Shown: positions 2,569 through 18,313 of the stretch, one piece after another
Position numbering within the stretch: position 1 is the stretch's first letter
How the letters are laid out: every line of letters starts with the position of its first letter
UHGV virus genome: UHGV-1555466
Reading direction: 5' to 3' (one strand)
Origin: a virus
DNA length: 43,198 bases
Position numbers and translations under genes: made by a program
Notes under the pieces: model-generated
The model's input: the letters and a program-made list of their open reading frames with translations, nothing else
Told to the model about the DNA's origin: nothing
Databases searched by the model: none

Positions 2569-2765
2569 TACTGGCTGCGACATTTTTGAATAAAAGCGTC
2601 GATATTTCGGCGCTCATAACGAACTACTTTTGCACTGAAACGAATTGGTGCCAGGATAGCCCGATGACGATGCTTAATATTCCACTCACATAGCGTTTTC
2701 TGTGTAATACCTAACTTTTGGCATACTTCATCCGGGGTGAGTAAATCGTCGGGTTTCTCGCTCAT
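2565..2765 (-). CDS. AlpA/excisionase-family HTH DNA-binding protein (putative Xis)
   Basis: 66 aa; LLTPDEVCQKLGITQKTL HTH then PIRFSAKVVRYERRNIDAFI, typical of the AlpA/Xis family; last gene of the leftward operon, 4-nt overlap with the helicase. Confidence 0.65.
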   Translation of the reverse strand: MSEKPDDLLTPDEVCQKLGITQKTLCEWNIKHRHRAILAPIRFSAKVVRYERRNIDAFIQKCRSQY

Positions 2766-4156
2766 GCTATACCTCTCTTTTTCATGGCATCGAGCAGGAT
2801 GTCCTGCACTGTTCGTTTTGAGTTGCGCCGCTCCATCACCATTTCATCCATAGTGTCGGCAGCAATAATGTGGTGAATAAATACCGGACGATTGTGTCCG
2901 GCCTGTATCTGCCTGGTGGGGCCGATACGTTCAATAATTTGCTGATATTGCTCCAGGTCCCACCAGTGTGAGAAAAATACCAGTATATTTCCGCCGTCCT
3001 GCATGTTCAGGCCGTGGCCCGCGCTGGCTGGGTGTGCAAAGAGAACAGGAATCTTTCCGGAATTCCAGTCGCGCAGTGTCTGTGGATCCTGGTCGAGGTG
3101 ACGACCGCGAGGGAATGCTTTAAGCAAGCGTTCAAGATCGTGTTTCCAGTGATAAGCAACCAGCACAGGTGCGCCAGCTGCTTCGGTCAGTATGCTGTCC
3201 AGCGCCTGTAGTTTGGTGTCATGCAGTTCTGACCAACTTCCGGTGTCATCTGTGTATACTGCGCCGCTGGCGATTTGCAGACACTTCAGTGTCTTTGCCG
3301 CGGCGTTCGGTGCTTCGATGCCTTCGCCATTCAGCTCGAGGAACATTTCCTTTTCCATTTCACGATACTGCTGACGGGCCTTCGGTGGCATATCCACGCG
3401 GATTACGTTATGGATGGGGTCTTTGATATCGAACCAGTCGGCCGCATCCAGCGAGAGGGTTACATCGGCTAACGCTCGCTGTATTTCACCCTGTGAGTGA
3501 GCAAAAGGCTCCAGTTTGGTCCAGCTCTGCCCCGGAAACTGTATCGAGTTGAACCAGCGTGAGGTAAACGCGCCGTAAGTGCGCCCGAGACGTTGCCCCT
3601 GGTCCACAAACCACGATTGTCCCCACAAATCTACCAGGCCGTTCGGTGCTGGCGTACCGGTGAGATTTATCCAGCGCCGGACATACTTATGCGCCACTTT
3701 GCCCAGCGCCGCCGCGCGCTTACCACCACCGCGCAGCCGGAAGGATTTTAGCCGGGTGCTTTCATCTGGAATGACAGTACCGAACGGCCATCGTTCTCCC
3801 AATTCTTCAATCAGCCAGACAAGGTTATCGTAGTTGATGGTGAACACGCTTGCGTTGCTGTTCGTCAGCGCCATAGAGCGCGCTTTGGCATTACCAATAA
3901 TTGGCTGCACCTCGATATTGCGCAAATGTCCCCACTTCAGTGCTTCATCCGGCCATGTGCTGGCAGCCACGCGCAGCGGCGCGAGGACCAGTGCGGGGCA
4001 TGTTTCTGCCCCTGCCATAAAGAGATCTTCCAGCGCAGTGAGCGTTGCCACGGTTTTACCCATTCCCATCCCCGCCCAGATGTTGCCGCGCAGGGTTTCG
4101 GTTTCGTGGTTGATAATGAGAACTTGGTAGGGGCGAGGTATATATTTTGGGGGCAT
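2762..4156 (-). CDS. SNF2-family helicase (phage replication/recombination)
   Basis: Walker A GMGKT, DEST(DExx) box, LTGTPAPNG motif III, C-terminal helicase domain. Confidence 0.8.
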   Translation of the reverse strand: MPPKYIPRPYQVLIINHETETLRGNIWAGMGMGKTVATLTALEDLFMAGAETCPALVLAPLRVAASTWPDEALKWGHLRNIEVQPIIGNAKARSMALTNSNASVFTINYDNLVWLIEELGERWPFGTVIPDESTRLKSFRLRGGGKRAAALGKVAHKYVRRWINLTGTPAPNGLVDLWGQSWFVDQGQRLGRTYGAFTSRWFNSIQFPGQSWTKLEPFAHSQGEIQRALADVTLSLDAADWFDIKDPIHNVIRVDMPPKARQQYREMEKEMFLELNGEGIEAPNAAAKTLKCLQIASGAVYTDDTGSWSELHDTKLQALDSILTEAAGAPVLVAYHWKHDLERLLKAFPRGRHLDQDPQTLRDWNSGKIPVLFAHPASAGHGLNMQDGGNILVFFSHWWDLEQYQQIIERIGPTRQIQAGHNRPVFIHHIIAADTMDEMVMERRNSKRTVQDILLDAMKKRGIA

Positions 4157-5865: not shown

Positions 5866-6627
5866 TTACGAGGAAGCGTTAGCTATTTGAGCTTGTGTAA
5901 ATTCGAAACCAGAATTTTGTAACCGTTGCACTAGACGAGGAACTGTTTCACGTACATGGTCGTTGAAATTCAGATACAAAATCCCGTTAGCATCAGAAGG
6001 CTGTTCTAGGTGCTGTTTCTGAAGGATTGCTACATTGCTGCGCCCTAAGGACGAAAGAAGCATACCCATCTCGAGTACAACGTTCTGTCTTGCGCGGGGT
6101 TGGATTTCTGCTTCACCGGCGCGCTTTGAGTATCCCATATCATCAGGTGTCAAAAGAACAATCCCGAAACGAGTAGCAGTTTGTCCTTGCCCAATTTCAC
6201 GTTCAAGCTCTTCAATAATGGTGAGTCCAGTCCCTCCCGTATTCTGCAAAATGAAATGGTCTGGTAATCCAAGTTTATGAAGGATTAGCTCAAGTTGTTC
6301 CTTTGCAGTATGGTCATGGCCGTGAACAATGAATATCTTTTTGGGAAGCTCAGATGGCTGTTCTACGGCTAGTGGTGTTGCCGTGGGGGGCGTTCCTAAA
6401 TGGGACATTATTGCAGTTTCAACATTGGGACGTTCTTGAGGGTTCCCTTGAAACTGAATGGTCCGGGTGGTGTAAAGGTTAACAATTACGCCATTCGTTA
6501 AACGATAGCAGTCATAAGTCTCACGCTGTTCGTGGGAAAAATTGGTGAACCCACACTCCCTCAAAAAGTCAGGAAAAGATTCTCTCGGGTATGGATAGTT
6601 GATCGGCATTTCAGTTAGTTCCTGCAT
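5866..6627 (-). CDS. TIR-like domain protein (COG4271/PF10137-like C-terminal domain, unknown N-terminal domain)
   Basis: 253 aa; KKIFIVHGHD...FGIVLLTPDD...RARQNVVLEMGMLLSSLGRSNVAIL...EQPSD; own terminator downstream. Confidence 0.55.
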   Translation of the reverse strand: MQELTEMPINYPYPRESFPDFLRECGFTNFSHEQRETYDCYRLTNGVIVNLYTTRTIQFQGNPQERPNVETAIMSHLGTPPTATPLAVEQPSELPKKIFIVHGHDHTAKEQLELILHKLGLPDHFILQNTGGTGLTIIEELEREIGQGQTATRFGIVLLTPDDMGYSKRAGEAEIQPRARQNVVLEMGMLLSSLGRSNVAILQKQHLEQPSDANGILYLNFNDHVRETVPRLVQRLQNSGFEFTQAQIANASS

Positions 6628-6691: not shown

Positions 6692-8755
6692 TCAATCTTT
6701 TTTGTAGTGGTACGCCTCAAAGCCGCCAGCGTTCAGCGGAATATCGGGTGCCCATTCGGGGTTAGTGGAGAGAAGCGCGGAAAGCGCTTTATCGTTGAAA
6801 TCTTCTGTGTCTGGTGCTTCGGTGATCACCTCGTCGTGTACCGTTAGCACAATGCTGTAACCGGCACCCTCGATCAGCGGCATGTTTCTGGCTAGAACGT
6901 CGCGGGCGGCCGCCTGGGTGACGTTCTCCACCAGCTTTCCGCCGTAGGTTTTGAGTCGTTGCCATTTACGCGAATAAGAGTTAACACCCATGTAGGTGAT
7001 ATTCCCTTGTTCGATAACCGGAGACGGGTAGCATACAGCGCGTCCGGATGGTAGCTGTATGCGCAGCCACGCGCCATCACGTCGGATTTTAAGATAGCCG
7101 CAATACAATGTTTTTTGCGGTGTGGCGATTGCTGTGCGGACAGTGCGCTCCAGCTCGTACCAGAAATCGCAGGTCGCCGGGTGCGCCCTGCGCCACAGGC
7201 GCTTGAGCGAGTCACATGCGATGAATACACGCTCGGACAGGCCAAAGGTCGACTTACGCTTAACCGATTCGTCGTACCAGCTTTTTGCCTCGCGGATAAC
7301 ATCGCGGGGAATGTTTGGCAGTGCGGCGTTCGCCAGCTCGTCGAGATCGAGACCGTAAACCAGAGCAAAAGTGATGAAAGCCGATACACCACCTCCATAA
7401 CCCAGACCGAGTTCCATGACTTTACCGATCTGACGCATGTGTTTATCAACATCATCTGGTGCAATATCGAAAGCTTTTGCATACGCCAGTTTATATAAGT
7501 CCGGACCCGTTCCAGCGTCATACTCTCTGAATGCATTCAGTTTCCATTCTTCTCCCGCCAGCCATGCCAGCATACGGCCTTCAATGTTTGACAAGTCACT
7601 TACCACTAGTTTTTTGCCTGTTGGCGCGATAATGCAGCCACGTAACGCTGAACTGGTTAGTTCCATGATATTGTCAAACAGCAGGTCTGCACATCCGGCT
7701 TTCAGTGCTTCGATGCCTTCGTCTATTTGTTCCTGTTTTAGTGAAGGGCGGGGAAGGTTCTGGGGCTGGAATAGCCGTCCGGCCCAACGACCGGTACGTG
7801 ACGCCCCGCAGAACTGTAGCGTACCGCGTAAGCGCCCGTCGTGGCTTACGCCTTTCATCAGTGCCTTGTATTTACTGGTGCTGGTAGTACTGGCTTGCAG
7901 GCGGATAGCCAGCAGTTCTTTCACGGCAGATGATAAATCGGGGTCGGCCATACGACGTTCCAGGGTACTGCGTTGCATGTCTGGTAGCTCCACACCGTAG
8001 GATTCAACGATGTGCTTAATCAACGCGTCCCGTTGTGTGGCTGCCTGCACTTCGCCATCAGTCATTTCCTGTGTACGCTTTGCCAGGCGCTTTTGCTCCT
8101 GGTCTACCGCTTCGATCGCAGCGCGCGCGAGTTGCATGTCCATGCAGACGCCCCGGTCGTTGATCTGCTGATCACGATGCCAGAGCGCCAGCTCTGTCCC
8201 CTGATAATTCCACTTCGGCAGACGTTTATAGACTTCACGCATTGCTTCGATATCCAGTCCGGCGTAAGCAACAAAGCGCCGCCATTCTTCCGGATGGGTT
8301 TTACTGGTGGCCCGACGCAGTTTGCTGTTTTTCGGACGTGGCTTACAGAACAGCTGGATCAGCGCTTTACCTTCTTTGTCCTTCGCTTTGTCTTGCGGGA
8401 CGCCTAGTACTTCGCAGAGTTCCCCCAGAGACCCCGGGAGACCGTGCGCCAGCGCCTGCACCATCGTGTCGCGCCAACGTTCGACTGGCGGTGCCAGTCG
8501 CGGCATTGCATAACGCAGAACGGTGCGGTCGAAGTGAGAGTTATGGAAATAAAGCAGGGTTTCAGGGTCTGCGATTGCTTCGTATAAGCCGTGTGGAATA
8601 CCACCACCGGCAGTGATATCCCACACGTTTACTGGCCCGTCGTTGATAGCCCATGCGAAAAGCATCACTTCAACGCCTTCGGCATACGCATGGGTACCGT
8701 TCGTAATAGGGATTTCGCAATAGGTTTCCAGGTCGCCCCATAGTATATTGGACAT
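6692..8755 (-). CDS. family A DNA polymerase with N-terminal 3'-5' exonuclease domain
   Basis: 687 aa; motif A DLSNIEGR, motif [13 protein letters not shown], motif C VHDEV. Confidence 0.85.
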
Positions 8756-9483: not shown

Positions 9484-10032
9484 TTAAATTAGTGCTTCAG
9501 CATCAGCACCTTCGCTGATATCGTCGAAATCGTCAGCGCTTGCCACTCCGCCGCCAGCGAATGCATCGCCGTCTCGCAGGAACTGGACTCCGCCGAGTGA
9601 GGCATTAATGCGTTTACCGAAATTATTGTCCTGTGCCCAGATATCGATAACGGCGTTTACATAGCACCCTGCATAAGGACGTCCGTCAGCCTGAATAAGT
9701 GGCGAACGATCGCGATCAAGAACAGCTGGGCGCGCTTTGTTAGCAGCATTCAGGAAGAAATTGCCGGGGAAGCCTTCATACTCTGCTTTTTCATCACCAT
9801 CATGCAGGCACAGATTGAGTTTTTTCTCCAGCTGGTTATAAATGGGCTCCCACTTCTCTCCCCATTTTTCCTTCGCTACCTGCTTCATAGCTTTACGGAT
9901 TTCTTCCAGTTGTGGGTGTTTGGGAGACATTAAAAATACTGCGGAGAAACGCGGATCGCCTTCGCCGTTTACAGTTTTAGCTTCAAACAGAGACGGGAAG
10001 GCCAGACGAACATTGTTCAGCTTCAGTTTCAT
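9484..10032 (-). CDS. DUF2815-family phage single-stranded-DNA-binding-like protein
   Basis: 182 aa; acidic C-terminal tail ADDFDDISEGADAEALI typical of SSBs. Confidence 0.65.
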   Translation of the reverse strand: MKLKLNNVRLAFPSLFEAKTVNGEGDPRFSAVFLMSPKHPQLEEIRKAMKQVAKEKWGEKWEPIYNQLEKKLNLCLHDGDEKAEYEGFPGNFFLNAANKARPAVLDRDRSPLIQADGRPYAGCYVNAVIDIWAQDNNFGKRINASLGGVQFLRDGDAFAGGGVASADDFDDISEGADAEALI

Positions 10033-10047
10033 GGGTATTTCCTTAAA

Positions 10048-11349
10048 TCAGATGAGGTCTGCGGTTAGCGTATCGTCGGATACGTCGTCGAAATCATTTA
10101 CAGGGTTGATATTGAGTGCGGGGCGTGGGTCTGACTCGGGAACGACGGTTGGTTTACCATCAGCTCGTGTTATCAGTGCCTCGACTTTTGACCAACGGCG
10201 TGGACTGGCCTTTTTGATAAGTTTTTCGGCTTTTGTGGGACTAATAAGTTTAAAGTCGAATACTTCTTCAGTTTTGTACCTGAACTGGTCCTTCAGAAGT
10301 GCGCGAGCTGCCTCTTCATCACTCCAGGCCCGGTTACCTTGTTTTCCTGTTACCAGTTTAAACCCCGGTACCGGATGTCCGGCATTGAGTTCATTGTGAA
10401 CCCGGTCCCGTACTGCCTTTAGCCAGGACTCAATAAAGTCGGCCTGGCTATAGATCTCCGCAAGCTGCTCAATGGTTAACAGAGGTACACGTGCGCTGGC
10501 ATTGGTGATTATTTCGCTGACAGGCTTTGTCAGATCTTCAAAGTCGCTGGCCGCTGTTTGTAAATGCTGCATTTTCTGGGCAGTGCAAATAGCTTTTGCT
10601 TTACAGAAGCGGCACTGCTTTTCTCCAGGTATGAAGTTTTCCAGCGGTAGTGTCTCAATGCCTTCGCATTCAGCAATATTGAGAACAAGGATCGCACTGG
10701 TTGCGGCCTCCTGTGCTCGTTTACCGAAAGACTGAAGTTCCTGCACGGTTAACGACCATTCTGAAACGTGGTTGAGCCTTGGCTGGTGAATAAATAATCT
10801 TACAGTCTCAAAGTCATACAGCATGCTGAATTGTTCGAGAGCACCCAGAGCATACAGTTGTAGTTGCTCATTTTGTTCTGCATCAATGCGGACGCCTTTG
10901 CCATATTTCAGGTCGTGGATTTGTAATTCGCTACCAGCGATGATTATGCCGTCGGCAGTTCCGAAAGATTCTTCCACACCCGTTATATGTGAGAAATCAA
11001 CACGTTGTTCAACCAATAGTTCATTATTCTGTGCAAGAGTCCAGACCGTATCAACATACCGGCCAACGGCTTCGACCATTTCATCATCCACCTGTGGGCC
11101 AGATGTATCATCAGGATTTTCGCGAAGGGGGTATGAGCCGAGAAACATAGAAACATTGCATCCGGCGTAGTGTTCCGGGTGGCTTTGCCTGTTTCGTAGA
11201 ACTTTTTCAGCAAGCGCGTGCGCTGCAGTGCCCTCGATTGCAAAAGTTGTTTCTTTATCCGGTTGTGTGGCCTCCAGCGCCAGACTTCCTGGGCAGCGCA
11301 TCCATCGATGCGCTGATGATGGAGAAAGTTGTGCATGAACGTCTGGCAT
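10048..11349 (-). CDS. DUF2800-family PD-(D/E)xK nuclease (Cas4-like, C-terminal Cys cluster)
   Basis: 433 aa; N-terminal [22 protein letters not shown] core, [14 protein letters not shown] cysteine cluster, acidic C-terminus. Confidence 0.7.
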
Positions 11350-13569: not shown

Positions 13570-14244
13570 TTAGTACATGCGTAGCGCGGATTTGGCGATC
13601 CCCGCCACGTAATGGATTTTTTCAATGTTTTCGCGTGGTACTCTGACTGGTGGATGATCTTCATTTACAGACATTAGATGGAACAGGCCATCGCGTTCGA
13701 ACAAGAAGGTTTTAACCATGACCTCACCGTCCCGGGTAACCACAAGTACTTCATCACCAGGAGTGTAGTCGTGGTTGGGTTCGACGATTACGAACTCACC
13801 CTCTTTGATTCTAGGCATCATTGAATCACCAACACATTTCAGGGCGTATGCATCTTCATCCTTTGTCGGCCAGTATATGAAACCATCACTGCTACCTACT
13901 GAATATTGGGTGTCGCTCCAAAGTCCTCCAACGCCTAGCTGAGTGTTTCCCAAAACAGGTACTTTATTAAACCTAAGAGAAATATACGTTTTTATACCCG
14001 TCGCGTCCTCTTTCTCCATTTCTTGAAGGCTCCTTTCTGCCAGGTCTATTGGTGACACGTGGAAGTAGTCGGCGATCTGCTTTAACGTTGCGTATTTCGG
14101 ATCTTTCACCTCTCCTGATACCAGCCTGTGTAGCGTTGGTTGGTTCAGTTGTAACCGACGTGCCAGCTCAGTTATCGAGCTTATCTTGGCTTTGTCCATC
14201 AGGTACTTGATGTTTTGAGAAAGGATATCGGTAGTATCAATCAT
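13570..14244 (-). CDS. CI-like repressor (HTH plus S24 LexA-type peptidase domain)
   Basis: 224 aa; N-terminal HTH; C-terminal GDSM and downstream Lys characteristic of autocleaving repressors. Confidence 0.85.
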   Translation of the reverse strand: MIDTTDILSQNIKYLMDKAKISSITELARRLQLNQPTLHRLVSGEVKDPKYATLKQIADYFHVSPIDLAERSLQEMEKEDATGIKTYISLRFNKVPVLGNTQLGVGGLWSDTQYSVGSSDGFIYWPTKDEDAYALKCVGDSMMPRIKEGEFVIVEPNHDYTPGDEVLVVTRDGEVMVKTFLFERDGLFHLMSVNEDHPPVRVPRENIEKIHYVAGIAKSALRMY

Positions 14245-14385
14245 TTGGATTCATCCATGTTGTATACAGGGACGGTGATTATGCGTTATCGGATATTTTA
14301 ATCCAGGATGATATAGAATTGCCGTATTGCTGAATAATCCGTTTTCGTATAAATTTGCGCTATAGACGAAAGTGGAGACTTAAAT
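14245..14385. promoter_or_regulatory. divergent cI/cro promoter-operator region
   Basis: Intergenic between divergent repressor and Cro-like genes; candidate rightward promoter TTGCTG (~14328) and TATAAA (~14349), GGAG RBS before cro. Confidence 0.5.
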
Positions 14386-14586
14386 ATGTCCGGACTAACA
14401 CCACAAGAGATGGTCAAAAGCTTGATTGATTCAGGGTATACCCAAAACCAAATTGCCGAAATTGCAGGCGTGAAGCAGTCTTCTATTAGTCGGCTTCTCA
14501 CCGGGGTTCATTCTGACCCTCGCTTTTCTACAGTACGTGCGATAGAAAAGCTTTTTCAGGAAGTGACAGCTAGACAAAAGGCGTAA
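14386..14586 (+). CDS. Cro-like HTH regulator
   Basis: 66 aa; YTQNQIAEIAGVKQSSISRL helix-turn-helix; divergent from cI. Confidence 0.7.
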   Translation: MSGLTPQEMVKSLIDSGYTQNQIAEIAGVKQSSISRLLTGVHSDPRFSTVRAIEKLFQEVTARQKA

Positions 14587-14589
14587 CCC

Positions 14590-16851
14590 ATGTCTGATAA
14601 CAAACCATGGGGAGCTACGCCCGATGAGTGGTTCCACTTCGATCTGGTGTTGGGGATGACAGACAGGCTTTTACCTGTGGTGTCCAATCCCTGTGCAGAA
14701 CTGTCGCCTAATAGCAAGCTGTCTCATAATTTCGGCAAAACCCCCAGTCGCTACAATGGCCAACGTAAGGTTGTTGGTATCCCCGACTGGGCTAACTATG
14801 TTGTTACGGAAAACGATTTTGCCCGGTGGTCGAACGAACCCGATTACGGTATTTGCGTTCGTACTGGCGACGGGGTGGTGGCTCTGGACTGCGATATCAA
14901 TGACGCCGGGATGCAGGAGATCGTACGCAATATTATCCTGTCATGCCTGGGGGAACTTCCGCCACGTCGCTGGCGGGCTGACAGTCATAAATGCCTGTAC
15001 CTGATTGCTGTTGATGGCGACTACCGTAAACGTGGTCACCGCCTGGAAGGCGAAAACAAACAAATAGAGCTGCTCGCTAAGGGCCAGCAGTTTGTGGCTT
15101 GTGGTACCCATCCGGCAGGCGAACGTATTCAGTGGGACTGCGGTCTGCCCGGCGAACCTCTGAAAATTACATCTGAACAGCTCGAAAGCCTGTGGCAGCG
15201 TCTGGCGGATAACTTACCCGTGAAAGACAGCTATACCGCAGGTGCAGGACGTCAGCGTGATCTTTCCTGTGTTGATCCTTCCGCGACAGATGATGTCGCC
15301 GACTGGCTTGACGCGAACGGGTGGACTCTGTCAGTCAGCTCTGATGGTTCCCGCAATCTGAAACCGTTTCGGGATGAGTCAGAATACAGCAACGGTTGCA
15401 GCGAAACATCCATTAAGTATTTCCCAAAAGGGACGGGGGGATTTGAACAGGGACATTTTAAAAGCATGCACAACACCGATGCGGGGCTTACTGATGCCGA
15501 CTGGCTGGAAGGCTACGGCTATACGCAATCCCTGTTCGAAGATCTCACGGTGGTTGAAGATGGCGATAAGCCTGAATTTACCGATATTAATACAGATATG
15601 ACAGCTCATTTTCTGGAACGCTTTATCTACGTCATCGAGGGTGACCAGGTATGTGATCTTAGCCGACCGCCATATCAGTGCATGATGGATATGAAGTCGT
15701 TCAAAAACCTGATGGCGCCTTACCAGTTCCCGCCAGAAGGGAAAGGGCAACCAACTCCCGCAACCAAACGGTGGATAGAGCATCGGCATAAGAAGATTGC
15801 TGAGACGACAGGCTATAAGCCCGGTGCGGGACGTATTATCGAGCGTTTCGACGGGCGGTTTGAGATAAACGAATTTTATATGCCTGAGCATCCACGTACA
15901 GCGGATACAAGTAAGGTGTCCACGTTCCTTAATCATATGGCGTATCTGGTACCTGATGCCTGGCAGCGCGAGTTTTTCATCGCCCGTCTGGGGTGGATGG
16001 TTCAGCGTCCGGAGCGTCGATGCCCGATTTCTATTCTGCATGTGGCTTCCGCACATGGTACGGGCAGAGGATGGGTCAGCCAGTTAATGGAGCGCGTGCT
16101 TGGTCCGTGGAACTGTGCTCGTACTCGCATGAAGATCCTGTGCGATAACCAGTTCCATGACTATCTGTACAATACGCTTCTATGCACCATTGACGAGGTG
16201 CGCGAAAATGATAAGCGGTATGAGGTGAACGATAAGATCCGTGACGTGCTGACAGAACCACGGTTTGAAGTGAACCGCAAATATGGCAGCAAAAAAACGA
16301 TGGATATATACACCGGCTTTCTGTTCTACACCAACCACTTTGATGCGCTGGCGCTGCCAGAGGAAGACCGACGTATCGCTGTGCTGGGGGGCCCTGACTT
16401 CGCCGCAACTGAAGAGCATTACGCCAGCCTGTACGGTGCGCTAAGCGACAGCGACTTTATCGCCCAGGTGTACTGGTATCTGATGGGCGTTGACCTGTCT
16501 CGCTTTAACTGGCAGCGCGCCCCCGAGACGAAAGAACGCCTTCTGATGATTGAAAGCAATAAGAGCGATGTGGAGGCTGCTCTTATTGAAATCCTGGATA
16601 ATCCGCCTGTGCCAGCAATGACTTATCAACAAATTGTTAACGCAATACTGGCAGAAGCAGGAATGGATGTAGAAATTAACCAGAAGCATATTACTCGCAT
16701 TTTGAAAGAAAGAACAAAGCGGGAACCCGTACGCGTAAAAATTGACGGGTTTGTATATAGGATTTGGATTCTTGTAAAAAATAACGATTTCAGCAACGAA
16801 GAATTGCGCGAAATATATAAATCTTGCGAAATTTTGCAATCTGGATTGTAA
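14590..16851 (+). CDS. putative replication initiation protein / DNA primase (prim-pol-like N-terminus)
   Basis: 753-aa ORF right after cro and followed by an iteron cluster; domain call by position and loose motif resemblance. Confidence 0.55.
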   Translation: MSDNKPWGATPDEWFHFDLVLGMTDRLLPVVSNPCAELSPNSKLSHNFGKTPSRYNGQRKVVGIPDWANYVVTENDFARWSNEPDYGICVRTGDGVVALDCDINDAGMQEIVRNIILSCLGELPPRRWRADSHKCLYLIAVDGDYRKRGHRLEGENKQIELLAKGQQFVACGTHPAGERIQWDCGLPGEPLKITSEQLESLWQRLADNLPVKDSYTAGAGRQRDLSCVDPSATDDVADWLDANGWTLSVSSDGSRNLKPFRDESEYSNGCSETSIKYFPKGTGGFEQGHFKSMHNTDAGLTDADWLEGYGYTQSLFEDLTVVEDGDKPEFTDINTDMTAHFLERFIYVIEGDQVCDLSRPPYQCMMDMKSFKNLMAPYQFPPEGKGQPTPATKRWIEHRHKKIAETTGYKPGAGRIIERFDGRFEINEFYMPEHPRTADTSKVSTFLNHMAYLVPDAWQREFFIARLGWMVQRPERRCPISILHVASAHGTGRGWVSQLMERVLGPWNCARTRMKILCDNQFHDYLYNTLLCTIDEVRENDKRYEVNDKIRDVLTEPRFEVNRKYGSKKTMDIYTGFLFYTNHFDALALPEEDRRIAVLGGPDFAATEEHYASLYGALSDSDFIAQVYWYLMGVDLSRFNWQRAPETKERLLMIESNKSDVEAALIEILDNPPVPAMTYQQIVNAILAEAGMDVEINQKHITRILKERTKREPVRVKIDGFVYRIWILVKNNDFSNEELREIYKSCEILQSGL

Positions 16852-16854
16852 AAA

Positions 16855-17118
16855 GGTGACGGCTAGGTGACGGCAAAACGCTTAAGCGTCACCTTAAAAA
16901 GTATATATAAAACAATGGGAAATGTGCTAAAGGTGACAGGTGACGGCAGAATTTAAAACTATATACGCGATAGTGTGTATTTTAGGTATTATACGATCGC
17001 TTATATATAGAGAACTAAAATCAACCGTCACCTGTCACCTAAAACATCTTCAGGCCTTATATGGCGCGCTTTGCAGCAGGTGACGGATATGTAATTACGC
17101 GTCACCTAGCCGTCACCC
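16855..17118. repeat. iteron cluster: at least 9 copies of GGTGAC(GG) in both orientations around an AT-rich core; candidate replication origin
   Basis: GGTGACGG at 16855, 16866, 16939, 17079; GGTGAC at 16932; inverted copies at 16887-16895, 17025-17040, 17100-17118; 16855-16873 is the inverted partner of 17100-17118. Confidence 0.6.
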
Positions 17119-17166
17119 GGAAATTAACTTGAAAAAATTAGCAAATAACTAAATGAGGATACGACG

Positions 17167-17457
17167 ATGTCAAAGATATTCCGCCAATGTATGCCTTACG
17201 GTATCCGCAAAACAGCTGAGGGGGCTTGGGAAGCATTCAACAGAGACTACCAGCCCTTAGGGGAGGCTTTTTTCTTCAAAAGAGCACTAACGCAGGCCAC
17301 TCGAGATGTGTTGGCGCCACCGCCGGTAACTCAGCGCGACGACTGTGTATGGCTGTATAGCGATATCGAGCACCCGATGCACTCTGAGGCTTACTGGAAA
17401 GCGTATTGCCAGCGGCTTAAACATCTTTCTAACCTCAAAATGAAAGATGAACGGTAA
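17167..17457 (+). CDS. hypothetical phage protein
   Basis: 96-aa ORF with GAGGA RBS. Confidence 0.5.
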   Translation: MSKIFRQCMPYGIRKTAEGAWEAFNRDYQPLGEAFFFKRALTQATRDVLAPPPVTQRDDCVWLYSDIEHPMHSEAYWKAYCQRLKHLSNLKMKDER

Positions 17458-17482
17458 GTAGCAAAACGTAGAGGTCAGAGCT

Positions 17483-17905
17483 ATGCGTGATATTCGACTG
17501 GTTTTAGAGCGATGGGGGGGCTGGGCTGCGAGCGAAGGTTGCAGTGTCTACTATCCACCTGTTTCCGCTGGATTTAAGAATCTGCTACCTGCAACGCAAG
17601 CCGGGCGGCTGAAGTGCAGTGACAATGACGGTCTGATCATCAGCTCTGCTATGAACTGCCTGAAGAAAAAAGATCCGTACCTGTGTACGCTCCTTGAGTG
17701 GCATTACATCCAGGCGATGCCTGTGAGGGCTATGGGTGTGAAGCTCGGCGTATCACACACTCAAGTTCTGAAGAGGCTCCAGGCTGCAGAGGGATTTATC
17801 GACGGCTGCCTGGCTATGCTGGACGTGGTTCTGGAAATGGATCAAGCAGTTCAGTCAAAGCCTAAGGCTATCAGGACTTTGCGAAGGAGCTGCCCGGCGG
17901 CATAA
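17483..17905 (+). CDS. antitermination protein Q
   Basis: 140 aa; MRDIRLVLERWGGWAA N-terminus and KRLQAAEGFIDGCLAMLDVVLEMD resemble lambdoid Q proteins such as QuuD. Confidence 0.75.
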   Translation: MRDIRLVLERWGGWAASEGCSVYYPPVSAGFKNLLPATQAGRLKCSDNDGLIISSAMNCLKKKDPYLCTLLEWHYIQAMPVRAMGVKLGVSHTQVLKRLQAAEGFIDGCLAMLDVVLEMDQAVQSKPKAIRTLRRSCPAA

Positions 17906-18058
17906 TATCCAGTAATCAATCACGTAAGGGAATCAGATGGTATTCAGGATTGCCGTAAACACCTGACGGCTTCAGGTATCAAGGTAAGATAAAAAATAGT
18001 TGTGGAATTCCAAAAAGCCGATTAGCCTGATATCTGTTGAAAACAGTTCATCACGAAG

Positions 18059-18083
18059 AGGCTTCCGCAAGGGGGCCTTTTTT
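18059..18083 (+). terminator. intrinsic terminator downstream of Q (tR'-like)
   Basis: 8-bp stem 18059-18066/18071-18078 with GCAA tetraloop, then UUUUU. Confidence 0.5.
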
Positions 18084-18313
18084 ATTGCCCCATTCTGGGG
18101 AAAAGTTAATAAAACAGGGCTTTCGCTGCGAAAAAACGCTATGCAGTTTTTGCCCTTTTTTATGCACCTTTTATTCACTCGAATTTCGTCATTCTGGACC
18201 ACTTAAGTTGATTAAATAGGCCTTTCATCGCAAATCTATTGCGAGCGGGGATCGTGTGGTTCCTATAACGTACATTATGTTAAATAACTTCCTTTTTTAA
18301 CAAATTTAACAAG

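Follow-up and report, generated by a model that had tools for sequence, protein, structure and literature searches.

Gene neighborhood of the iteron array

The window, that is, the whole 43,198-bp stretch of viral DNA analyzed here (UHGV-1555466), is a temperate E. coli myophage, found as a prophage of E. coli. The 2.9-kb stretch around the repeat array described below is 100% identical to phages vB_EcoM-606R2, -689R2, -611R5, and -683R1, and the annotated record of the induced myophages vB_EcoM-606R2/611R5 includes terminase, head, tail-sheath-type, and lysis genes. The genes run in the order cI, cro, the gene of a 753-aa putative initiator, the array, orf96, and Q, followed by the genes for holin, endolysin, and terminase, the latter located about 3 kb from the array:

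13570-14244, minus strand: S24-type cI repressor
14386-14586: Cro-like HTH protein
14590-16851, plus strand: gene of the 753-aa putative initiator (Pfam, PDB/Foldseek, PHROG 1156 'DNA primase')
16615-16848, plus strand: region coding for the predicted C-terminal winged-helix domain, aa 676-753
17167-17457: orf96
17483-17905: Q antiterminator

The left arm of the genome encodes an SNF2-type helicase, a family-A DNA polymerase, an Enc34-type SSB, and a DUF2800/PD-(D/E)XK nuclease, so that the phage supplies much of its own replication machinery. The element is present in 45-46 of 5,426 complete E. coli genomes (~0.8%), in all cases on the chromosome and never on a plasmid; each carrier genome has one copy, except for one record with two matching places, and co-resident prophages of differing iteron type were not seen in any of these 45-46 genomes.

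A two-fold symmetric array of ten iterons

The array starts 3 nt past the TAA stop codon (16849-16851) of the 753-aa ORF and is intergenic. It consists of ten copies of an iteron with the extended 9-bp consensus AGGTGACGG, which is matched exactly by six of the ten copies and with one mismatch by the other four:

16854-16862, plus strand: iteron 1, AGGTGACGG
16865-16873, plus strand: iteron 2, AGGTGACGG, 11 bp past iteron 1
16886-16894, minus strand: iteron 3, AGGTGACGC, inverted
16895-16930: left spacer, 78% A+T, containing TATATATA
16931-16939, plus strand: iteron 4, AGGTGACAG, overlapping iteron 5 in a 7-bp register
16938-16946, plus strand: iteron 5, AGGTGACGG
16948-17024: central core, 77 bp, 74% A+T, proposed DNA-unwinding element (A+T content, alignment)
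17025-17033, minus strand: iteron 6, AGGTGACGG
17032-17040, minus strand: iteron 7, AGGTGACAG
17041-17077: right spacer, 51% A+T
17078-17086, plus strand: iteron 8, AGGTGACGG
17099-17107, minus strand: iteron 9, AGGTGACGC
17110-17118, minus strand: iteron 10, GGGTGACGG

The hexamer GGTGAC occurs 36 times on both strands of the window, a number that none of 100 shuffled sequences reached (16.7 +/- 4.4), and a hexamer scan identified the array as the densest hexamer cluster of the whole window. The preliminary description, made from the letters of the sequence, had reported at least nine such elements in direct and inverted orientation; both orientations are indeed represented, and the count is ten exact cores within 16855-17117, five on each strand, against 0.16 predicted in 263 bp from the background rate (Poisson P = 2.5e-15). 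The cores start at 16855+, 16866+, 16888-, 16932+, and 16939+ in the left half and at 17027-, 17034-, 17079+, 17101-, and 17112- in the right half. The array is two-fold symmetric about position ~16986: reading from the left, two forward sites and a reverse one are followed by a spacer, two forward sites, the core, two reverse sites, the second spacer, and finally one forward site and two reverse ones. The outermost segments, 16855-16872 and 17100-17117, are exact reverse complements over 18 nt, as had been noted at the outset, and the inverted similarity extends to 40-nt arms at 78%. The A+T-rich core between the elements was likewise recognized correctly, and so was the distinction from CRISPR, given that the units are 9 bp long, partly overlapping, in both orientations, and without regular spacers. 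The core contains a nested inverted repeat (16960-16974/16993-17007) that is kept across iteron types, and in the right spacer, the block GGCCTTATATGGCGCGC (17053-17069) shows recognizable similarity across iteron types in the alignment.

Because the iterons are inverted, a single strand of the array can form an extended hairpin (dG -57.6 kcal/mol, z = -8.75), which may help extrusion or melting. An Rfam search of the 13-19 kb region in E-value mode produced sub-threshold matches only, including one to a miRNA-precursor model that just mirrors this hairpin. Consensus searches of 16800-17200 yielded no IHF match, one DnaA-like site with two mismatches, outside the array, and one GATC. The promoter/terminator scan found no plus-strand site inside the array and no plus-strand terminator-like site between the initiator gene and orf96; with no terminator predicted before the array, early rightward transcription probably passes through it. 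The cumulative GC skew of the window climbs almost monotonically with the direction of transcription and gives no origin signal. There is no second iteron cluster in the 43-kb window, which comprises the whole phage; outside the array, matches resembling AGGTGACGG occur only singly. An ORF within the array (16940-17083, 47 aa, GTG start) was rejected as a coding sequence because relatives show 1-, 2-, and 4-nt indels there.

The adjacent primase-helicase

The 753-aa protein consists of three parts, namely an N-terminal primase of the Prim-Pol (archaeo-eukaryotic) type, a central SF3 helicase (DUF5906, NrS-1-like), and a C-terminal winged helix, the last being a predicted domain. Pfam places Prim-Pol at aa 75-185 and DUF5906 at aa 487-595, in agreement with the original placement of the array downstream of a primase gene; in public records, the protein is labeled 'hypothetical' or 'DUF5906'. 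Sequence search against PDB returned only NrS-1 (helicase 6k9c, E = 4e-8). Foldseek search with the full-length AF2 model (pLDDT 78.8) additionally matched the NrS-1 CTR (4e-14), poxvirus D5/E5, the ASFV PrimPol, the prim-pol domain of pRN1 ORF904 (1rni, 1e-4; 9aam and 3m1m also matched), SaPI PriRep1 (7pds, 2e-4), and the SaPI5 primase-helicase (7ola, 5.5e-4). The P-loop of the protein has an arginine (R493). The predicted winged helix comprises strand b1 (aa 676-678), two helices (679-690 and 698-709), strands b2 (714-718) and b3 (721-727), and a C-terminal helix (736-752).

Conservation of the array among relatives

The preliminary description had proposed a comparison with the origins of related phages. 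At least 40 relatives, from E. coli to Pasteurellaceae (34-100% identity over the compared segment), carry the same array after the same gene, with a differing core. The protein has ~460 homologs in databases. An IMG/VR scan yielded 78 loci, and the C-terminal half of the protein is kept in 24 relatives (L002-L025, 67-100% identity). Most of these have a ten-element array with matching offsets from the stop codon (approximately 3+, 14+, 36-, 80+, 87+, 175-, 182-, 227+, 249-, and 260-); L016, L022, and L025 have 8-9 exact core copies, and the array was not seen in the partial relative L026. The iteron cores vary among the relatives and include GGTGACGG, GGTGACAG, GGTGGCAG, GGTAACAG, GGTGTCAG, GGTTGCAG, TGACACAG, and others. 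In most arrays, every copy has the array's own core, the exceptions being one or two odd copies. At the level of complete sites, AGGTGACGG is found in the window and nine other loci, AGGTGACAG in L016, AGGTGGCAG in six loci, AGGTAACAG in five, and AGGTGTCAG in three.

Three phages in which the primase half of the protein is 97% identical but the helicase half is of the VapE type have ten AGGTTGAGTA sites, and in 50 VapE-type relatives (L030-L079), the commonest hexamer of the array is present 4-9 times. The cI-cro-initiator-array-Q synteny, together with the array, is common to Xenorhabdus, Arsenophonus, Limnobaculum, and Avibacterium: the Xenorhabdus relative (59% identity) has ten GGTTGCAG at the same offsets as in the window, the Arsenophonus relative (64%) has fourteen AGGTAAC(A), the Limnobaculum relative (46%) nine TGACACA(G), and the Avibacterium relative (36%) nine GGTGGC. 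The same synteny with an array was also detected by a GTDB scan in Erwinia, Izhakiella, Serratia, additional Xenorhabdus, and Testudinibacter. In an Arsenophonus endosymbiont, there are two degenerate copies in which the tail is disrupted and the array is gone.

Co-variation of the wing hairpin with the iterons

The 24 aligned proteins were labeled by iteron type (A, that of the window; B, GGTGGCAG; C, GGTAACAG; D, GGTGTCAG) and scanned for mutual information between alignment columns and type. The top columns, 715, 721, 722, 723, 725, and 745, are all within the last 40 residues, and the information per 20-residue block is the highest in the last block. In the model, residues 715 and 721-725 map to strands b2 and b3, which form the wing hairpin; the residues of the window protein that co-vary with the iteron type are R715, F721, V722, Y723, and I725.

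16729-16770, plus strand: wing beta-hairpin, aa 714-727, VRVKIDGFVYRIWI, proposed specificity determinant (mutual-information scan, alignment, 22-tail table)

Across protein backbones and genera (22 distinct tails), each wing dipeptide at positions 722-723 goes with one core:

VY: core GGTGACGG
AQ: core GGTGACAG (E. coli-type L016, Erwinia, Izhakiella)
TV or TL: core GGTGGCAG
GY or AY: core GGTAACAG (E. coli type, Serratia, Arsenophonus)
TN or TQ: core GGTGTCAG
TE: core GGTTGCAG
KE or KL: core GGTGGCAG
QV: core TGACACAG

Within Xenorhabdus, the wing KTE is found with GGTTGCAG and KKE with GGTGGCAG, that is, one residue changes per one base of the site, the tails differing elsewhere too. Comparison of the window with L004/L005 over 14590-17490 delineates the variable segment: the divergence is confined to 16690-17117 (65-84% identity), whereas each 100-bp bin of 14590-16690 is at least 95% identical and the orf96 stretch, 17190-17489, at least 94% identical.

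16690-17118, plus strand: candidate exchangeable specificity cassette, comprising the 3'-terminal ~53 codons of the initiator gene and the entire array (window versus L004/L005)

Pairs of relatives of the same iteron type are separated from pairs of different types with an AUC of 0.89 by the segment 60-165 nt upstream of the stop codon, compared with 0.71 for the last 60 nt, which are nearer to the array, and 0.59 for the DNA just beyond the array; physical linkage alone, therefore, does not explain the association. The iteron type is not tracked by cI/Cro, by orf96, or by the DNA beyond the array, and in the vicinity, only the wing residues follow it. In the VapE-helicase lineage (L030-L079), the residues informative about eight iteron types cluster within the last ~30 aa, in the same G-K-x-x-[KR]-[VI]-[WF] hairpin; this lineage is an independent replicate of the wing-iteron pattern.

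Two other candidates for proteins acting on the array were considered and rejected. Phages of types A and B have near-identical orf96 products, and within type A, two phages were found to differ, L002 having an array as in the window along with a different orf96; being shared across types and differing within type A, orf96 is not the specificity factor. An operator of cI/Cro was rejected as well, with GGTGAC absent from 14245-14385, between cI and cro.

Comparison with known replication systems

The closest parallels to this arrangement are found in satellite elements. SaPI origins are located immediately 3' of rep and contain 6-12 penta- or hexamer iterons, which form two sets of opposite orientation that flank an A+T-rich region; the SaPI Rep is a self-loading SF3-type helicase that binds the iterons through a C-terminal winged helix, with a primase fused in SaPI5, and the Rep/ori specificity is element-specific (PMC9371898). 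The array described here similarly follows the stop codon of the putative initiator gene by 3 nt, at the same place in the relatives, and has five 9-bp sites on each side of the A+T-rich core, the inner pairs converging. As in SaPI and PICI, the presumed initiator combines an SF3-type helicase with a C-terminal winged helix (predicted in our case) and a fused primase, and the full-length model matches the SaPI structures 7pds and 7ola. The differences are that SaPI1, SaPIbov1, and SaPI5 (PriRep5) are satellites of the Gram-positive Staphylococcus aureus, whereas the present element is an E. coli phage; that the PDB sequence search detected no sequence-level similarity of the window protein to the SaPI proteins; and that here the primase is of the Prim-Pol type and the iterons are 9 bp long in a strict 5+5 dyad, in contrast to the SaPI iterons of 5-6 bp.

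[quoted passage not shown] 2018, PMC6092414). We located this element in CFT073 and found that 288 bp after the primase gene contain eleven GGTAGA(C/T)A sites in both orientations. Thus, in the same host, a primase-family gene is followed by ~290 bp of iterons, and both proteins contain Pfam DUF5906. However, the EcCICFT073 protein has 584 aa and the domain set D5_N, DUF5906, and Pox_D5, and the PICI, as a satellite, lacks structural genes; BLASTP of the 753-aa protein against the EcCICFT073 Pri-Rep gave no significant alignment, the only shared feature being Pfam DUF5906. The array would work like a PICI origin, yet the element is not a PICI because it is a full phage.

In the satellite phage P4, the alpha gene is immediately followed by crr with its ten 8-bp type-1 iterons GGTGAACA, at a distance of 4.5 kb from the annotated ori. 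The likeness consists in a protein with a primase, an SF3 helicase, and a C-terminal DNA-binding domain, in iterons 3' of its gene, and in the iteron itself, GGTGAACA(G), which resembles the AGGT..CAG family of the present arrays. On the other hand, the alpha protein combines a Zn-ribbon/Toprim primase, D5_N, DUF5906, and Pox_D5, of which only DUF5906 is common to the 753-aa protein, and hhalign of the two proteins showed no similarity (probability 0.1%); by domain content, the 753-aa protein is not a homolog of P4 alpha. The cis sites differ too: P4 needs two separate ones, ori and crr, compared with the single cluster here, and crr consists of two 120-bp direct repeats rather than one dyad.

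[quoted passage not shown] The three domains within one polypeptide (related proteins are encoded by some phages) and the cis element 3' of the gene are the same as here, and the present array also folds as a long hairpin, with the difference that in this case the hairpin is built by the iterons.

In lambdoid phages, the origin-binding domain of O and the iterons of ori-lambda co-vary as an exchangeable specificity module. The lambda iterons lie inside the O gene, and the host DnaB is recruited through P, in contrast to the intergenic array here; the annotation of the phage record contains neither a replication protein O nor a P. The origin-binding domain of RepA and the iterons of the V. cholerae PLE also exchange and co-vary as a module (PMC8263062). 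The PLE initiator is a RepA_N protein with ~30-bp iterons, and neither PLE nor lambda encodes an SF3 helicase-primase.

Probable function of the array and alternative explanations

Taken together with the comparisons above, the computational evidence supports the interpretation, already put forward in the preliminary description, that the array is an origin bound by the adjacent initiator. We consider it highly probable that this is the replication origin of the phage, of the SaPI/PICI/P4 kind, because the relatives keep the ten-site layout while the sequence of the sites changes together with a few residues of the initiator tail, because the adjacent protein is a primase and SF3 helicase with a predicted winged helix, because relatives from E. 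coli through to Pasteurellaceae have the array in an unchanged position, and because SaPI and PICI origins that were validated experimentally show this layout. By type, the array most likely belongs with initiator genes followed by their own origins. A plasmid offers a parallel: pW47-1, an 8.9-kb circular record, carries the gene of a DUF5906 relative (28% identical over aa 341-753), and the 268 bp downstream of this gene contain ten GGTTACAA sites, compared with 0.23 expected, which fits the idea that such a gene and its array can form a self-sufficient replicon.

The steps of binding, melting, double-hexamer loading, and priming that we infer are as follows. Binding of the 753-aa protein to the ten AGGTGACGG sites would be mediated by the C-terminal winged helix, whose wing hairpin (aa 714-727) would recognize the variable bases in the middle of the iteron. 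[quoted passage not shown] The core would then melt, the SF3 helicase domains would unwind the DNA outwards, the N-terminal Prim-Pol domain would make the first primers, and the family-A polymerase and the Enc34-type SSB of the phage would take over after priming.

An initiator-bound array need not be the place where synthesis starts: it could be an auxiliary cis site similar to crr, serving looping, loading, or handcuffing copy control, with synthesis starting elsewhere. P4 provides the precedent and the chief reason for caution, given that the ten type-1 repeats of crr, in both orientations, are directly 3' of the alpha gene and 4.5 kb away from the annotated ori. We regard this as unlikely for the present phage: the window is a whole phage without a second iteron cluster, the array has its own A+T-rich core between convergent sites, as in the validated SaPI and PICI origins, and the domains of P4 alpha are different ones (Toprim, D5_N, and Pox_D5). 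A role in regulation of the early operon, either as an operator array controlling read-through into orf96/Q or as a transcript hairpin (terminator, attenuator, or RNase III site) timing the late genes, would be in line with the location of the array, which separates the early genes from the gene of the Q antiterminator, with the stable single-strand hairpin, and with the sub-threshold, hairpin-type Rfam match to MIR169_8 (27.4 bits versus a gathering score of 107). A hairpin, however, requires co-change of paired positions only, whereas the variant is shared by all ten copies, even by direct repeats that are not base-paired to one another, and the spacers in the arms are poorly complementary, at 78% versus 51% A+T. 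Moreover, there is no plus-strand terminator-like T-run after the array, the cI/cro operator region does not contain the motif, and the sole co-varying protein segment comes from a primase-helicase rather than from a transcription factor, all of which makes a regulatory element quite improbable.

Short clusters of direct and inverted repeats are also known in parC/parS and pac sites, R1 parC being an example, so that a partition (centromere-like) or packaging site bound by another phage protein has to be considered. The phage record has no annotated Par proteins, the element is chromosomal and never plasmid-borne in the 45-46 complete E. coli genomes, the terminase genes are ~3 kb off, and the array is tied to the initiator gene by position and by co-variation across genera; accordingly, we give this explanation hardly any weight.

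Possible exchange of initiator specificity

The kind of origin that we assign to the array is already known; what is added here is the allelic wing-iteron series and the ~430-bp exchangeable cassette, the latter being put forward as a candidate. Searches of the literature with the phage name, and for iterons with DUF5906 or primase-helicases in prophages, found no prior description of the array as an origin in the searchable literature. With the origin interpretation, a group of prophages that is widespread among enterobacteria gains a probable origin and initiator, and the layout of SaPI/PICI origins, which had been described as unique to these satellites, is seen to be present in complete temperate phages as well. 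The natural allelic series of wing residues versus iteron bases makes the recognition rules of a self-loading helicase-initiator approachable by few point mutations.

Much more tentatively, the last ~53 codons and the array could be viewed as a ~430-bp exchangeable cassette that exists in at least eight orthogonal initiator/iteron pairs and is governed by a simple wing-hairpin code, such that a T to K change in the protein would go with a T to G change in all copies of the site. Under this speculative scheme, the diversification would be driven by conflict, and the mixed arrays of L016 and L025 might represent a switch in progress; the candidate pressures are avoidance of cross-initiation between related prophages, of hijacking by satellites, or of origin-directed nucleases like ICP1 Odn. 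If the pairs are orthogonal, they might be of use as compatible replicon parts.

Modularity of the initiator gene and its array

The gene for the 753-aa initiator is mosaic, with two halves (window positions 14590-15580 and 15580-16690) that correspond to the primase and helicase parts of the protein. Among the IMG/VR relatives of the locus, L010-L013 encode an initiator with a primase half that is 59-62% identical and a helicase half that is 96-98% identical to those in the window. In L027-L029, a primase half with 97% identity is joined to a VapE-type helicase and a different tail, and the array differs as well, consisting of AGGTTGAGTA x10. The two loci from the Arsenophonus endosymbiont of Aleurodicus floccissimus (L094 and L096) contain degenerate copies of the initiator gene in which the C-terminal tail is disrupted, and no iteron array was found downstream of either copy; thus, the protein and the array appear to have decayed jointly. 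Two arrays are mixed: that of L016 is of the GGTGACAG type with one copy of GGTGTCAG, at an offset of about 227 after the stop codon, and that of L025 is of the GGTGTCAG type with one copy of GGTGACAG, in the inner right pair. Such mixing may have been left behind by a change from one specificity to a neighbouring one.

Conserved elements other than iterons

Two elements inside the array are distinct from the iterons:

16959-16974 and 16993-17009, inverted repeat in the A+T-rich core
17053-17069, right-spacer block GGCCTTATATGGCGCGC, rich in G+C

The inverted repeat takes the form CTATATACGCG ... CGTATATAG in most relatives, across iteron types, and could be a melting site, a priming site or a site for a host factor. 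The block GGCCTTATATGGCGCGC is likewise recognisably similar between arrays of different iteron types, and its presence makes the left and right spacers unequal (78% vs 51% A+T).

Arrays in a plasmid and in phage P4

Proteus mirabilis plasmid pW47-1 (L100), a small circular record of 8,955 bp, has a gene for a DUF5906 relative, and an array lies about 300-560 bp downstream of it:

L100:5597-5864, ten GGTTACAA sites, direct and inverted, in a 268-bp stretch

Because the record also carries a fragment of a tail tape-measure gene, pW47-1 may be a phage-derived mini-replicon or a satellite. The type-1 iteron of phage P4, GGTGAACA(G) (crr, L099:4291-4590), resembles the AGGT-NN-CAG sites of the initiator's family; no similarity was detectable between the C-terminal domains of the P4 protein and the initiator.

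The helicase P-loop

The Walker A motif of the initiator helicase is HGTGRGW (aa 489-495, window 16054-16074), in which R493 occupies the position of the catalytic lysine, whereas NrS-1 (GTGKG), like P-loop ATPases generally, has the lysine. An alignment of 22 family members shows no variation across G490-W495. Walker B (TIDEV) is retained, as are the sensor asparagine and the DRR motif.

Other genes and signals

A weak Rfam match located between the antiterminator gene Q and the holin gene is probably due to chance:

18057-18088 (+), ctRNA_p42d, 26 bits against a gathering score of 50, E = 0.02

The phage has a set of replication genes of its own, all on the minus strand:

2762-4156 (-), 6692-8755 (-), 9484-10032 (-) and 10048-11349 (-), genes for an SNF2-type helicase, a family-A DNA polymerase, an Enc34-type SSB and a DUF2800/PD-(D/E)XK nuclease

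Amid these left-arm replication genes lies one that may function in defence or counter-defence:

5866-6627 (-), TIR-like domain protein gene (annotation of ON470588)
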